DNA of 63,848 bases, counting the filler, from Licmophora abbreviata (Eukaryota), in the NCBI GenBank assembly GCA_900291995.1. It is 8 parts of 8 records of this genome, joined end to end, with 100 filler letters (N's around TTAATTAATTAA, not from the genome) between each part and the next. Parts side by side here need not be neighbours in the genome. Positions count along the whole stretch, not along the records: positions 54,371 to 63,848 come from OLMU01002706.1; 7 more parts are not named here. The stretch is one strand, 5' to 3'. The notes under the pieces were generated by a model, which saw only the letters and a list, made by a program, of their open reading frames with translations, made no database searches and was not told the origin of the DNA. The position numbers and the translations under genes were made by a program. Every line of letters begins with the position of its first letter. The first letter of the stretch is position 1. Shown here piece after piece: positions 49,992 to 63,848 of this stretch.

Positions 49992-50205
49992 AAAACTTCC
50001 TAGGGAGACCTACCGAATTTATTAAGATGATTCATGTAGGCTTCTTCTCCTCAGTATCTGCCTGACTGTTGGTCCGAGGTCGATGGCGAGCCGTCGGAGA
50101 TCGTGNNNNNNNNNNNNNNNNNNNNNNNNNNNNNNNNNNNNNNNNNNNNTTAATTAATTAANNNNNNNNNNNNNNNNNNNNNNNNNNNNNNNNNNNNNNN
50201 NNNNN

Positions 50206-55922: not shown

Positions 55923-57992
55923 TCAACGGGTTGGTATGAGCGCAAAGAAGCGGTTAGCAATCACCGATAGCGGCTGAGACCAACCACCCATCTCTCCGAG
56001 AAACACTTGATCGGCACCGAGACGTTCAAGTTCCTTGACCGACTCGGCATTCGACAATCTCTTGGCCCATTGCAACGGCGTATACCCGTTGGCGGCTTCC
56101 ACTGCCAGGTGCGAGCCGTGTCGTGCCAAGATCTTGATCGCCTCCACACTATTGGCGCCAGCAGCAAAGTGCATAGCAGTCCAACCGTTGGCGTCCTTTA
56201 GGTTGACATTGCAAAGGCCTCCGTCGTCGACAGACGACTCGTCGATTCCCTTGCACAGAAACTCCAGCACGCGACATGCCCCATGAAAAGCCGCCGTGTG
56301 AAGCGCGCAAGTCTCCGTCCCATCCGAGCCTACATAGAACCCATCCACGTCAATGCCCTCGCGAGTCTGGACAATGCCTTTGACGACCGACAAACCATCG
56401 TCAGAAGTGCAGGCGTCAACAAAAGCCCTTGATAGGACAAGTTGTTCATCTTCCGACAGTGCGAGAAAGGTCTTCTTGCGTTTCTGCTTCAACATTGAGG
56501 TCACCGAAGAGGCAGCTCGATGTACCGCACGAGAGTACGCGCCGACGCAACCACTTGGCATTTTTCGAGGGGGGCTTTCTGCTGTATCTTCCGCTGTCTG
56601 CATGCAATCACTAGGACACTCTGCTTTCTGCTCAAGGACCGGACTCGGTGGAAGGTGCTCGTACGGGTTCGGCGTCATGGGGGTCATCATTTCGGTTGTC
56701 GGAACATCTTCGTCCTCGACGCTCCCAATTGCTTCCGAGGGCCCTCTACCGGACGCATGCTTCCGACTTCGCTTCCCTCGCCTACGAGTACGCGAGTCAG
56801 CAGCAACTAGTCCACTATCATTGTCATCAACAGTGGAATCATATGTCTGCGTCAATGCCGTATACATACGAGCGGCAAGCGCTGATGGAAACCGCATCAT
56901 GTTACTGTCATCTTCTTCCTGCAATGGCGGCGCCATGGGACGGGTTGTTATCCTCTGCCGTAGCTGCTGCGGAAAAGTGCTCATCATGTGTGCCATTTGC
57001 TCTGCTGTATGACGCATGGACTGTCCGTCCGAGCGACGCGCCGCATCTCGGGCCGCCCCAAGTACTGATCCGGCAAGTCCAACCTTGAGAACATTCGGAA
57101 GTACGACCTCAGGCGACGTACTGCCCGTCATGACGGATGTGGCGCCCACCAGCGTAATGACGAAGGCAGCACTCGCAAGAGTGTTCGCAGGATGGGAGCC
57201 GTCCGTGACATGCTGCTGAAAGCCGTTGTTCCGGAGTAGATGGCGAATATAAGCCAGACTATGGGACAAAGGCATGCGAGTCAAGGTGGAGTTGCTGTTG
57301 GCATACTCGTTGACAATGTCCTTGGCAGCAGGTTCATCCAGCATGGTGAGTCGTGTAATATAGCCAACACCGGATAGAATATCGAGGGCATCTTCGTCGT
57401 GGTCGGAGGAGCACGCGCCGTCCAGAGAAGATGTTAGAAGAGCACGTTGTAGCTGGAGCTGCAGAAAATAAAAGCACTCGAAATTGGGTCGTCGTGCTGT
57501 CTGCGAAAAAGAGGCCAGATCTGCCGCAGCGAGGAAGCAGAATGTATGCATCATGATATCATGGTACAGAACGTCAGCGGCGCTCAATCTCACAGGCGAC
57601 TGTGATGACTCGCAATGCGAATGCAAGCTCTCAGGCGAGACATGCAGCGACGCGGAGTTCTGTCGTTCTTGTTCCTCTTCCAAAAGCGACAGGAGATCGG
57701 CGACACTGTTGCTGGCTTCGGACCCAGACTGAATGGAAAAGTAGCACGACGAGACGCGCCTCATTCCGAGCGACACAGCCGGGTGGAGCTGCGGAGGGAG
57801 AGAATCAATGATTTCGTCGTGTGGGGACGCATCAAAACTGCTGTCCCAGGGGAACTCGTCGGATTCATCCTCCCATGACTGACGTCTAAAATGGCGCCAC
57901 GTTGTCGCTTCGTTCGACGAGAGGTGTAGATCGCCTGCATTCATGCTCTCCTGCTCTTCTTCCTCAACAGACGCTCTCTCCGACGAATCCAT
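55923..57992 (-). CDS. Ankyrin-repeat protein with F-box-like segment and hydrophobic helices
   Basis: TCALHTAAFHG, GWTAMHFAAGAN, GYTPLQWA; LYHDIMMHTFCFLAAADLASFSQT F-box-like. Confidence 0.75.
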   Translation of the reverse strand: MDSSERASVEEEEQESMNAGDLHLSSNEATTWRHFRRQSWEDESDEFPWDSSFDASPHDEIIDSLPPQLHPAVSLGMRRVSSCYFSIQSGSEASNSVADLLSLLEEEQERQNSASLHVSPESLHSHCESSQSPVRLSAADVLYHDIMMHTFCFLAAADLASFSQTARRPNFECFYFLQLQLQRALLTSSLDGACSSDHDEDALDILSGVGYITRLTMLDEPAAKDIVNEYANSNSTLTRMPLSHSLAYIRHLLRNNGFQQHVTDGSHPANTLASAAFVITLVGATSVMTGSTSPEVVLPNVLKVGLAGSVLGAARDAARRSDGQSMRHTAEQMAHMMSTFPQQLRQRITTRPMAPPLQEEDDSNMMRFPSALAARMYTALTQTYDSTVDDNDSGLVAADSRTRRRGKRSRKHASGRGPSEAIGSVEDEDVPTTEMMTPMTPNPYEHLPPSPVLEQKAECPSDCMQTAEDTAESPPRKMPSGCVGAYSRAVHRAASSVTSMLKQKRKKTFLALSEDEQLVLSRAFVDACTSDDGLSVVKGIVQTREGIDVDGFYVGSDGTETCALHTAAFHGACRVLEFLCKGIDESSVDDGGLCNVNLKDANGWTAMHFAAGANSVEAIKILARHGSHLAVEAANGYTPLQWAKRLSNAESVKELERLGADQVFLGEMGGWSQPLSVIANRFFALIPTR

Positions 57993-58323: not shown

Positions 58324-59409
58324 CTAAAAGTCTACATCATCCTCCAGACTCATGTGCCAGTCGTAGTCCGGCTCGAATGCCTTCTCACTCTGCAGGTCGC
58401 AGTATATTCGACTCACTCGTTGCCAAAGAGCTCGGTGTGGCTGTAATATCCGTGGGTGGTTGAAAATTGTACAGTCCTCCGTATATCGTTCCATCACAGT
58501 CATGTTGGTAGGTGCTATCAACGCGTGATTCAGTGTCGGGTCGGCAAATTCTGCCACCACATCTGCAGACAAAGCCTTGGACGGAGAAGCAACACCGCAT
58601 CGTTCCGTTAGCTCTCGCGATATTCGACTCACTTCCTCCAGTGGGTTCTCCAACACCTTAGTATAACTAGTCACGACACGACATAGATCTTGTGATCCCT
58701 CAATGGCTCGTCGATAATATGCGATCCATGCACGCATGCCAAACCGAATCGGATGTCGCTCTCGTCTCTCCAACGAATAAGCCACGTCCATTGGATGACG
58801 GAATGTAAAAATGACAGCCGGCTTTACTTCCAGTTCTCCCAACCACAATGGCAGTGTCAAGCACACTGTCGGACTCTTGATCAGGTACGGTTCTGTCGAT
58901 TGACTCTTCAACAGTTCCAATACAGCTTGCCCGTTCTCGTCAAATCCCATCTGTCGAGAAGCATCGAAACTGTAGGGACTATTGATAACGTCAATGACTT
59001 GCTCTTCAATCCAATTCATGTTCTGGTCAATGAGCGGTTGTAGTTCAAAGTATCCCTTCTTGTTGAACTTGAAGGCCGGTTTCAGCGGCCCGCCCGCATT
59101 GTATCCCATGCCTTCGACCAACAAGCCCGCCAGCATGGATGTGCCCGATCGATGCATTCCCAAAATGAAAACGCCCGTTCCTTGAGGCTGATTTTCTGCT
59201 AGTGAAGATTGGATCGATGCAGCTGATACTGCAGCAGCAGCGTTCTGGTAGTGCGCCGCTTGAAGAAGTCCCGAGATGCCGCGTACCGTGGCGTGGTCCT
59301 GTCCCTCCAAGACGACATTCAGGCGGCCCACGAGAAAGCAGCCTATCGTAAACGACATGGTCGCTGCGGTTAGCAGCAGGGTCGATAAGGTTGCTTCCAG
59401 ATGTGCCAT
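58324..59409 (-). CDS. Membrane-anchored sulfotransferase family protein
   Basis: N-terminal TM; PAPS-binding VFILGMHRSGTSMLAG, N.KGYFE, KSP, RHPMDVAYSL. Confidence 0.85.
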   Translation of the reverse strand: MAHLEATLSTLLLTAATMSFTIGCFLVGRLNVVLEGQDHATVRGISGLLQAAHYQNAAAAVSAASIQSSLAENQPQGTGVFILGMHRSGTSMLAGLLVEGMGYNAGGPLKPAFKFNKKGYFELQPLIDQNMNWIEEQVIDVINSPYSFDASRQMGFDENGQAVLELLKSQSTEPYLIKSPTVCLTLPLWLGELEVKPAVIFTFRHPMDVAYSLERRERHPIRFGMRAWIAYYRRAIEGSQDLCRVVTSYTKVLENPLEEVSRISRELTERCGVASPSKALSADVVAEFADPTLNHALIAPTNMTVMERYTEDCTIFNHPRILQPHRALWQRVSRIYCDLQSEKAFEPDYDWHMSLEDDVDF

Positions 59410-59911: not shown

Positions 59912-60731
59912 ATGAAGATCTTCGCCCTCCTCGCCGCTCTCGCGGCTGTTGCCTTGCCCTTCGCATCGGCCACCAAGTGTAAGTCGATCGTCGAGATTGC
60001 TTCCGGTAACGACGACTTTGATACGCTTGTTGCCGCGCTCGTCGCCGCGGATCTCGTCGATGCCCTAGAGGGTGATGGTCCCTTCACGGTGTTCGCACCC
60101 ACGGATGACGCCTTTGATGACCTACCGTCTGGTGTATTGAAGGATCTTCTGAAACCCAAGAACAAGGCTGCCCTCCAAGACATCTTGCTGTATCACGTTG
60201 TGGCCGGCAAGATCGAATCTTCGGATTTGGTCGATGGCAAGAAGGTCAAGACTCTCCAGGGGAAGTCTGTCAGGATTCGTCTTGATCCCGTCCGGGTCAA
60301 CAAATCCAAAGTTACGACGGCTGACATCAAGGCCTGCAACGGTATCATTCACGTCATAGATGCAGTGCTCATTCCTCCCGATCCCAAGCCTACGCCCAAG
60401 CCCGACCCGAAGCCTACTCCCAAGCCCGAACCCAAGTCCAAGCCCTATGTTTCGATTGTTGGGCAGTGTACCTCGAAGCCGTCCAACAAGTGTGGCATGT
60501 GCGAGGGTATGTAACAGAATGATATCGTGTCAACTCGCCCGTAGTCTCTTAAAGCGTGCGAATCTTACGTTGTTCCGTCTCTTTCCAGGTGACTGTGATA
60601 AAGACGACCACTGCAAGGATGGATACTACTGCTTCCATCGTAACAAGGGAGACAAGAAGCCTGTCCCATACTGCAAGGGAGGAGACAAGGACGGTTCTCG
60701 TACCGACTACTGTACCAAGAAGTGGTGGTAG
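59912..60731 (+). CDS. Secreted fasciclin (FAS1) + Pro/Lys linker + frustulin-type Cys-rich domain protein
   Basis: Signal peptide; FTVFAPTDDAF, LLYHVV, NGIIHVIDAVL; PKPTPKPD linker; CGMCEG|DCDKDDHC..C..VPYC..DYC across intron 60507-60588. Confidence 0.88.
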
Positions 60732-61492: not shown

Positions 61493-63848
61493 ATGTCGAC
61501 CAGGTATCGCCGACAAGCCCCTACTCCCGTTTCGACTGGGGGTGGAACGGACGGCGACTATGACTACAGCATCGCCACACGAATTGGTCAAGTCAGGAGC
61601 ACTCCGCCAGAAGAGCAGGCGTACCAGAATATGATTCGGCATGGTGTCCCTCCCCCACCGCCGCCTGATGGACCTCCTCCGACATCTCCTGAACAGTTGA
61701 GCAGAAATTCACCTTCTTCTTTTGATGGCGATGACGCTTTATTGGACTTGGAACAGCTTGAAGAGCTCCATCAGGAAGCTGAGAAGATGAAGGCGCTCGG
61801 CAACAAGCACATGGCAGCACAGGTGCGTGCAGCTACAATCAAGTTACGGTCATCTTTTTTTTCTTTTACGGACATTCAATCTGACCTTGCGATTTAATCT
61901 CGTCAATTTTAGGAATATGCCCGCGCCTATAATGCATACTCGGCAGCGTTGCAGTTGTCGCCTGTCGGGCCTTCCTCTCATGTATTTCTTTCAAACCGGG
62001 CGGCAGCCCTTTTGTCACTCAAACGTTATGCCGCTGCTGCGACAGACGCCCGTCGTGCCGTGGCCCTGGCACCGACCTTTGGAAAGGCACATGCTCGATT
62101 GGGACAGTCTCTGTACTTTCTCAAGGACTATGAGGGAGCAGTTGCAGCTTATGAAGAAGCGCTTGCCTTCGAACCGGACAATGGTGTGACACAAACGTAT
62201 TTGGAAAAGGCCAGACGCAAATTGGCGCGGCAGCAGGAAAAGACCTATCAACAGGCGCGAGGAGAAGAAGTGGCCGTCGCCGACGAATCGGTTCCGTTCA
62301 CGGTTGCCAACAGTATTGCTACGGACCCGAAAAGGCAGGCAGCTGTGTTGCAGTCGGACTTTCAAGGTTTGAGCCGAGCCGTTGTGAAGGCTGTGTCGAG
62401 AAACAGACCTGTGGAAGAAATTAGCACTGGTCAGAGTCCCACAAACCTTGTGTCGCCTCTTGGAGAGGGGGGGCACCGAGGAGGTCGGAGATGACCCTGA
62501 CTTTGACGAGGCTGTTCGACTCCAGTCACATGCAAACAATTTGCTGTCTTCGAAGCAATACAAGAAAGCGATCGAACGATACTCGGCTGCACTTTTTCTG
62601 GTACCCGATGATCCGCTCTTATCGCCGGAGCTCCATTTGGGGAGAGCACACGCCCTGAATGGAGCACGCCGTCACGACAGTGCCCGGAATGACGCGCAGC
62701 TTGCTATCAAGATCCAGCCGACCTCTGAGGCGTATTCAACCCTGGCCAAGAGTCTCTTTTACATGGAAGACTACTATGGAGCTATAGAAGCGTTTGAGCA
62801 GTGCATGGACATTCTCCCTCCTGGGGAATCCCTCAGTATGTTTGATCAGGCATACTTGCGAAAGGCGGAAACGGCTTGGAATGAAGAAGTCCAGAGGAGC
62901 CCAGAAGATGCTAGATCCACGATCTCGGCGAGAAGCACATTTGTCCCAAAGTTGCCGCCTCCGCGGTTTGTGCCGCGCGAAAAGGTGAGATCATAGGAGT
63001 GTCCGTCGTGTACAATCCCTGTTCTAGAATTTCCTGATCTTTACTCATCTGCGATGCTTTTTCTTTCTATAGGCAATCAGCTCGACTCCAAATATGCCGC
63101 ATCCCCCAAAAGAGTGGCCTCAGCAGTCTCCACGGTCGCCATCCAACTTGAGGGTCGGAGTAGAGCGCGATGTCGCTTTTCTTTCGGAATCATTGGGTAT
63201 CAAACTGAATCGCGGACCCGATGGGATCGTTCGCGTTGTTTCCGTTGCCGCGGATTCTCCGGGTTCGCCTCTTGCCCGCGATGGCTTCATCGACGTAGGA
63301 GACGTTGTTCGCGAAGCCGCCGGGGTTGACATTCGGCGTCCCATTACAAACATTATGTGGGGAGACACAGTTGCATTGATCAAAATGGCCCCACGCCCGA
63401 TCATCTTGGTTGTCGCACGAGAAGAAAGTGCCGTACCGCCGTTTGTGACCGAAGAGATCAAGAAGGCTTCTCAACAGATCTCGTCCTATGAAGAAGCAAA
63501 AAGAGAAGAGCGAGGCATCTATTTTGAAGAACCTTCCCCTGCAAGCGGCATGGAAAGCGTAAGGGATTCTATTGCTGCAAAAGGTACGAAGCCTGACCCG
63601 CAAGAGGATCCATCCGACAATCGAGACTTTGCGGACGGGGAAATCAATGACACAGTGGACTTCAGTACAGAGGAGACGACACCACCCGTCGGGTCTCATA
63701 GACCTGAGAAAATCGCTTTGATTGATTCATGTTGTCGACTCGACCCACCTGGGCTCGCAGCATCGTCGGCTACAGCGACGGGTGAAGACGAGGAAACGCA
63801 GTCGCTTGCAGACGGAGAACACAGTGCTGTTGAGGGTGCGGACAAAGT
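61493..63848 (+). CDS. TPR-repeat + PDZ-like domain protein (runs off window)
   Basis: Exons 61493-61822, 61913-62984 (shift at G-run ~62466-62473), 63073-end; LSNRAAALL..ALAPTFGKAHARLG TPR; SLGIKLNRGPDGIVRVVSV PDZ. Confidence 0.8.

Follow-up and report, generated by a model that had tools for sequence, protein, structure and literature searches.

Does the locus at positions 59912-60731 (+ strand) of the Licmophora abbreviata DNA analyzed here (hereafter the window, the whole stretch of 63,848 nucleotides (nt), filler included) encode one protein in which a fasciclin (FAS1) domain is joined to the acidic cysteine-rich (ACR) domain of the frustulins, and where would such a protein act? Frustulins were among the first diatom wall proteins described. 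A natural protein with a single ACR module and a well-understood cargo would be the simplest case for asking whether ACR alone retains a protein on the wall, and a Lys-rich variant of the module would offer a built-in contrast on whether acidity and calcium binding matter. The results support a two-exon diatom gene from which an 82-nt intron is spliced to give a product of 245 amino acids (aa). By sequence comparison, the C-terminal module of this product is a true frustulin ACR domain, and a single Lys-rich ACR tag with eight Cys on a FAS1 protein would be a new domain variant made from two known kinds. With a probability of roughly 0.55, the protein is displayed at the wall, where ACR would hold it on the organic coat of the silica.

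Exon–intron structure and domains of the locus

The features of the gene and its product are as follows.

59912..60506, + strand: exon 1, containing the ATG, the signal peptide, FAS1, the linker and the start of the Cys-rich module; its last base opens the Gly codon of CEG/DCD
60507..60588, + strand: intron, 82 nt, phase 1, GTATGT...TTCCAG, with an in-frame TAA at 60512-60514
60589..60731, + strand: exon 2, with the remainder of ACR, the TKKWW tail and the stop codon TAG
59912..59971, + strand: putative signal peptide (residues 1-20), probably cleaved after ASA
60014..60376, + strand: FAS1 (fasciclin) domain, residues 35-155, Pfam PF02469
60377..60460, + strand: linker rich in Lys and Pro (residues 156-183), repeating the tetrapeptide PKPx
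60461..60713, + strand, with the intron inside: Cys-rich module, residues 184-240, consisting of two extra upstream Cys and the six-Cys ACR core
from 60500, + strand: ACR core, residues 197-240

When 60506 is joined to 60589, a reading frame of 738 nt (245 codons) is obtained, with the TAG at 60729-60731. The intron divides the Gly codon of CEGDCD, of which the first base is at 60506 and the last two are at 60589-60590, and the motif is seen in the joined product only. Without splicing, the open reading frame (ORF) from the ATG at 59912 ends at 60512-60514. The original prediction had stated that the intron splits CEGDCD and hides it from an ORF reading, and this is what is found; because of the split, both ORF-based and Pfam-based annotation miss the combination of FAS1 and ACR here. 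The intron has a pyrimidine tract before TTCCAG and a GC content of 45%, as against 52-59% in the flanking exons. There are 46 GT..AG joins in which exon 1 stays open, and 60507/60588 is the sole one giving a full match (positions 1-42 of 42) to the hidden Markov model (HMM) of ACR described below, and the next best joins miss the first Cys of the module. Exon 2 alone is in frame and has a proper stop, and it is short of the first three residues of the ACR signature, exactly those three that exon 1 provides.

A relative from another public assembly, P0005 (242 aa), has the same architecture in one uninterrupted ORF on a contig of 937 bases, which is either a transcript or an intron-less gene. 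The window protein and P0005 align without gaps across the splice junction, and the start Met and signal peptide of the former align with residue 1 of the latter. Region by region, the identical residues number 15 of 20 (signal peptide), 102 of 135 (FAS1), 17 of 28 (linker), 42 of 57 (Cys-rich module) and 5 of 5 (tail), and P0005 keeps all 10 Cys of the window protein. The ending TKKWW is common only to these two proteins among the protein ends examined. The spliced model is favored because exon 2 is a significant match to the ACR family, a single join completes the module, and P0005 has the joined form. The splice model, coordinates and domain order given in the original prediction are borne out by the canonical intron, the joined frame of 245 codons, P0005 and the comparison of the 46 joins. 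A scan of metagenome DNA with P0005 gave 40 loci, all aligned to the FAS1 part only (residues up to 178); a tblastn search of those 40 loci with two queries, the peptide of exon 2 and the C-terminus of P0005, gave a best E of 1.9.

The product would be a small secreted protein of about 225 residues after removal of the signal peptide. The putative signal peptide was recognized by inspection from the initial Met-Lys, the hydrophobic core (the top hydropathy window is at residue 3) and ASA before Thr. The residue following ASA should be noted, since diatom plastid presequences have an aromatic or Leu residue after the cleavage site, whereas the window protein has Thr there. No hydrophobic segment at the C-terminus was seen in the hydropathy scan of the protein.

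The FAS1 domain is matched by Pfam PF02469 with 132.9 bits (cut-off 22; E 9.3e-39) over positions 2-123 of the 123 in the profile. Its fold was judged on the AlphaFold model of P0005, a relative with 69-76% identity, in which the predicted local distance difference test (pLDDT) values are 93-97 over the domain. The model superimposes on the solved FAS1 structure of TGFBIp (5nv6_B) with E 3.3e-13 and a root-mean-square deviation (rmsd) of 1.7 over 135 columns, and the matches to TGFBIp, periostin, Rhodobacter Fdp and MPT70 have E values of 1e-9 to 1e-13 and rmsd values of 1.4-3. The window protein is thus predicted to contain a domain of the FAS1 fold.

In the linker, Pro accounts for 11/28 residues and Lys for 6/28. 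The underlying DNA is a 24-nt tandem repeat of 2.5 copies with 86% matches (60377-60436). The counterpart of the linker in the P0005 model has pLDDT values below 50 and is disordered. A silaffin-type pentalysine cluster was considered and ruled out for the window protein. In silaffins, the silica-targeting cluster has five Lys within 12-14 residues, according to passages of PMC9650480, whereas the tightest five-Lys stretches in the window protein (163-177 and 218-232) each span 15 residues; the spacer of P0005 packs five Lys into 11 residues. Passages of PMC11725842 describe glycosylated PT/TP tetrapeptide repeats in TLP-4. The tetrapeptide period is common to these repeats and the linker, but Thr stands beside Pro in only two units of the latter, which makes TLP-4 a weak lead. 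The linker may be modified, as suggested in the original prediction.

The C-terminal module among ACR domains

An ACR HMM was built from 673 distinct modules; the whole set of 723 modules was taken by pattern from 236 relatives (P0123-P0358). The spliced product matches this HMM over positions 1-42 of 42 with 51.4 bits, and the best of 1000 composition-matched shuffles reaches 12.2 bits. A phmmer search with exon 2 alone gave 380 relatives at E ≤ 1e-3, 88 of them at E ≤ 1e-10. They include a six-repeat Cylindrotheca fusiformis protein (E 5.1e-40) that shares 80% identity with "Alpha 2 frustulin" Q39495, and "frustulin 5" of Phaeodactylum (P0192, so named at NCBI; E 3.7e-12). When exon 2 was compared by BLASTP with the named alpha-2 frustulin P0278 (Q39495_CYLFU), which has 5 ACR modules by pattern, all five ACR domains were aligned with 43-55% identity, the best with E 8e-13 at 55%. 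Failure of the module to align with frustulin ACR domains had been set as a refuting test of the original prediction; the alignment and the HMM score together answer it in the module's favor. The claim that frustulins carry arrays of the domain also agrees with the data: besides P0278, 148 of the best 150 of the 380 relatives have 2-10 matched stretches.

The signature peptides point in the same direction. The hexapeptides CQGDCD and VPGCSG define ACR domains; their Cys residues are conserved and their other residues substitutable, and CQGDCD is the form given for epsilon-frustulin (passages of PMC4712521). Both hexapeptides are found in the window protein, as CEGDCD and as VPYCKG, the latter retaining V, P, C and the final G. 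Of 424 C.GDCD matches among the best 150 relatives, 207 read CEGDCD, the commonest form. CEGDCD is the classical frustulin motif; the string itself was not found in the open-access papers searched. No second C.GDCD module was found in the window, either by DNA pattern (0 matches) or in a six-frame motif scan. When the last 65 residues of P0005 were used in a word-indexed search, only the query itself came back (2 candidates), which reflects a limit of the index rather than an absence of relatives, and ESM Atlas returned only unnamed diatom clusters (score 0.90-0.92) for the P0005 C-terminus.

The window module departs from the family in charge, in Lys content and in the number of Cys residues. 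Its 44 residues include 10 acidic and 9 basic ones, so that its net charge is −1, in comparison with a mean of −6.4 (standard deviation 2.7) over the 723 modules, and the P0005 module follows the same trend at −2. Lys makes up 15.9% of the window module (7/44), the highest share of the 723, against a family mean of 2.5%. The original prediction had called the module Lys-rich rather than acidic. This description holds in part: the module is rich in Lys, but 10 of the 44 residues are still acidic; lysines were gained without loss of acidic residues. Directly upstream of the core there are two extra Cys, in the spacing C-x7-C-x2-C. Two upstream Cys (C-x5-8-C-x2-C.GDCD) are also carried by 72/723 modules, often in long arrays, e.g. 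in P0138 and P0177. Because of these, the eight-Cys form looks like an existing subtype of ACR; we know of no description of it.

The fold of ACR was considered on the model of an ACR-only protein, P0156, in which the modules have pLDDT values of 91-96. A Foldseek search of solved structures with this model gave no match at E ≤ 0.001, the best being Dkk1 at 0.25. In a wide VIA structure search, 33 chains reached Z ≥ 2, all of them below Z 5; the best has Z 3.5 and an rmsd of 1.8 over 37 residues. The weak neighbors are knottin peptides from spiders and sea anemones and the Cys-rich domain of Dickkopf. ACR is likely to be a small disulfide-knotted domain, which these neighbors fit, but they name no family for it. 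No PDB sequence match to the module was found at E ≤ 1, and no NCBIfam family was found. The frustulin ACR domain is not modeled in Pfam, so automatic annotation of ACR proteins is misleading or absent. Exon 2 matches only Dickkopf_N in Pfam (E 0.44), and P0278 and ACR arrays give weak WAP, DX or Dickkopf_N matches based on the Cys pattern, of which the WAP match on P0278 is spurious.

Like the frustulins P0278 and P0192, the window protein has a signal peptide, a proline-rich spacer beside ACR, the C[EQ]GDCD and VPxCxG hexapeptides and the six core Cys, with 43-55% identity over the module. Unlike them, it has one ACR module instead of an array, and FAS1, which frustulins do not have, occupies more than half of the mature protein. 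The near-neutral charge of the module, its top Lys share and the two extra upstream Cys also set it apart. Passages of PMC4712521 assign a protein to the frustulin family by at least three of five features, and passages of PMC4557024 give multiple ACR domains as a shared one. A presequence in this sense comprises an ER signal peptide and a second signal; in the window protein, a signal peptide (by inspection) and a proline-rich linker are seen, together with one ACR module in place of several; there is no Gly run that would constitute a polyglycine domain, and in place of a Trp-rich domain there are 2 Trp, both at the extreme C-terminus.

Fusion of ACR to other domains was surveyed in the best 150 of the 380 relatives at Pfam E ≤ 1e-5, a ranking that favors multi-repeat proteins; 22 of these 150 carry another Pfam family.

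Ricin-B lectin (Ricin_B) with ACR: 5 proteins, two of them below Pfam's own cut-off
FG-GAP with ACR: 4 proteins (P0227, P0235, P0257, P0262)
PhoX with ACR: 2 proteins (P0143, P0211)
GH99/WbsX with ACR: 2 proteins
Carbonic anhydrase with ACR: 2 proteins (P0140, P0232)
Fasciclin, LRR, GH75+GH16, DUF7495, Methyltransf_FA, Ephrin_rec_like and PT repeat with ACR: 1 protein each

Source names and precomputed domains give further partners, among them subtilisin, a V8-like peptidase and a peptidoglycan-binding-domain protein. The diatom fusions with Ricin-B, PhoX, carbonic anhydrase, GH99, GH16/GH75, FG-GAP and LRR join an extracellular domain to ACR, as in the window protein; they differ in their cargo, and most have two or more ACR copies. 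To our knowledge, none of these fusions has been characterized. The occurrence of ACR on PhoX, carbonic anhydrase and FG-GAP proteins of diatoms suggests a wall-bound location for these proteins. Alkaline phosphatases and FG-GAP proteins, as classes, are independently described in silica-associated fractions of a biosilica proteome (passages of 10.1101/2021.09.18.460806).

The single fasciclin partner in this survey is the environmental protein P0182, which has the cluster mates P0359 and P0360. These are JGI sequences labeled "transforming growth factor-beta-induced protein" or "surface protein with fasciclin repeats", and they represent the only other FAS1 and ACR architecture found. As in the window protein, FAS1 is on the N-terminal side and ACR is C-terminal. 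They differ in having at least 3 FAS1 domains followed by 2-3 strongly acidic six-Cys ACR modules, without a Lys/Pro linker, and their FAS1 domains are 47-52% identical to that of the window protein. The C.GDCD motif is absent from the other 119 best FAS1 relatives. The combination of FAS1 and ACR would therefore be rare, yet not unique, and ACR fusions as a class appear to be common. The term chimera in the original prediction is right in that FAS1 is joined to ACR, but it overstates the singularity of the protein, given the 22 fused relatives and this second architecture. No description of FAS1 with ACR, or of other ACR fusions, was found in the open-access literature on frustulins, ACR domains and fasciclin.

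A FastTree phylogeny of 242 FAS1 segments was constructed with a midpoint root; segments of fewer than 115 aligned residues, including the truncated first domain of P0359, were excluded. The FAS1 domains of the window protein and P0005 are paired with a support of 0.999. The pair belongs to a clade of seven leaves (support 0.93) that also contains two partial proteins without ACR and one P0359 domain, the other P0359 domain being placed elsewhere, a placement compatible with either one or two origins of the FAS1 and ACR fusion. A secreted fasciclin-domain protein of Fragilariopsis cylindrus, P0012, falls in the same clade and is 62% identical to the window protein over FAS1; it differs in that no ACR is present in the sequence seen, which is partial.

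Location and role of the protein

In the arrangement that we consider slightly better than even, display of FAS1 at the wall would be achieved as follows. As in frustulins, the ACR module would hold the protein to the organic layer that coats the silica wall. The Lys/Pro spacer, which may be stiff, is probably extended and is possibly glycosylated, would carry FAS1 at one end and a single ACR at the other, and FAS1 would face outward to bind a ligand of the matrix or of the cell surface. With its extra lysines, the module has a net charge of −1, not about −6; these lysines and the Lys-rich spacer might shift the binding toward polyanions such as silica or acidic polysaccharide, which would be bound more directly. 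From the domains present we infer the role of an adhesin, or of a two-headed adaptor between the wall and the extracellular polymeric substances (EPS), as the original prediction had it.

ACR is read as a retention tag because frustulins coat the wall and because many extracellular cargoes carry the domain. Passages of PMC4557024 describe a Ca2+ affinity of ACR domains and a frustulin coat that covers the entire wall and is added after silica formation, and GFP fused to a frustulin is found at the cell surface (passages of PMC4712521). As for the other end of the protein, FAS1 proteins are listed among putative diatom adhesives (passages of 10.1101/2021.09.18.460806 and PMC10939406). In passages of 10.1101/2021.09.18.460806, the fasciclin protein CcSSP1 is given as the most abundant silica-associated protein of Cyclotella cryptica. 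CcSSP1 is secreted, as the window protein is predicted to be, and shows that a FAS1 protein can be silica-associated; it differs in being rich in SxxSSKS-type motifs, which the window protein is not.

Several points weigh against retention of the protein on the wall. Wall retention, calcium binding and adhesion are read from FAS1 and ACR domains in other proteins, none of which has a single ACR, and these functions are assigned to the window protein by analogy. Frustulins carry several modules and the window protein one, and one copy may bind too weakly. Only 29 of the 723 modules are as basic as the window module or more so, and it may not act like a frustulin ACR. The fold search that matched adhesion proteins also gave chains of carotenoid-binding AstaP, a phycobilisome linker and NDH-1 CupS, in which FAS1 has non-adhesive roles. 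The preference of the partner survey for multi-repeat proteins bears on the same side. From one sequencing run, presumed to be RNA, a single 208-nt contig was obtained; it lies at 60153-60360 in exon 1, shows no differences from the window and does not reach the junction, and it is neutral on the expression and splicing of the gene.

It is possible, if on the unlikely side, that the protein is freely secreted as a component of the matrix or of adhesive trails and is not retained on the wall. The charge-neutralized ACR would then be a disulfide knot, or an end-piece for cross-linking or oligomerization, and FAS1 would bind a polymer. The single ACR copy, where most relatives have 2-10, and the atypical net charge (−1 against a mean of −6.4) fit such a role. 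So do reports on Phaeodactylum and Amphora, in which FAS1 proteins are counted among putative adhesive or trail proteins (passages of 10.1101/2021.09.18.460806 and PMC10939406). The divergent sulfotransferase neighbor of the gene, described below, has also to be counted here, since an excerpt of the Seminavis literature includes sulfotransferases and fasciclin-like genes among exopolymer-linked rhythmic genes. Contrarily, ACR is best known from the frustulins that coat the wall, the module retains both ACR hexapeptides and the six core Cys, and the consulted parts of the Craspedostauros trail proteomes contain 0 mentions of fasciclin or frustulin.

An altogether different use of FAS1 is improbable. 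In this case FAS1 would carry a small hydrophobic ligand (a carotenoid or a lipid), like AstaP, which microalgae secrete, and ACR would put this cargo at the cell surface without adhesion. AstaP-pink1 (22iy, E 2.7e-10, 35% identity) and AstaPo1 (8c18) are among the confident FAS1 fold matches, and FAS1 roles beyond adhesion are noted in passages of 10.1101/2021.09.18.460806. However, TGFBIp, periostin and bacterial Fdp match equally well or more closely (E near 1e-13, identities up to 51%), so the fold alone does not favor AstaP. Retention of the intron is very improbable. It would give a FAS1 protein of 200 aa whose last two residues are encoded by the intron, and the exon-2 module would be left as a dead remnant. 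The single run gave no junction-spanning read, but exon 2 is an intact, in-frame and full-scoring remainder of ACR with a proper stop, the intron ends are canonical, P0005 has the joined reading with the 42/57 module residues and the five-residue tail identical, and the motif is completed by this join alone.

A wider and rather doubtful generalization may be considered. ACR would be a general, portable tag for sticking to the frustule, found on lectins, phosphatases, carbonic anhydrases, glycosidases, integrin-like FG-GAP proteins and FAS1 proteins. The charge-switched, Lys-rich, eight-Cys form in the window would bind silica or acidic polysaccharide directly, not via calcium bridges, and together with its Lys spacer would make a minimal natural module for display on biosilica. 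Were this true, many diatom ecto-enzymes would be wall-bound and not free, e.g. PhoX in phosphate scavenging and carbonic anhydrase in carbon acquisition, and the ACR tag could serve for surface display on biosilica.

Neighboring genes

Reading frames in the window are interrupted by short runs of N at about 42.2 kb and at ORF ends near 50150, 51910 and 54322, which appear as runs of X in the translations and leave some neighboring gene models incomplete. At 55923-57992 (− strand) there is an ORF of 689 aa with C-terminal ankyrin repeats (Ank_2, E 2.1e-13), and at 63094-63846 (+ strand) an open-ended ORF with a weak PDZ match (E 6.6e-4, under Pfam's cut-off); neither has an evident link to the gene that encodes FAS1 and ACR.

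The upstream neighbor of this gene is divergent. It lies at 58324-59409 (− strand) and encodes a protein of 361 aa that matches Sulfotransfer_3 (E 1.9e-6; 28.8 bits, cut-off 27), and the two genes share an intergenic region of 502 bp. Since sulfotransferases and fasciclin-like genes are named together in the Seminavis excerpt mentioned above, this pair of genes might be co-regulated.

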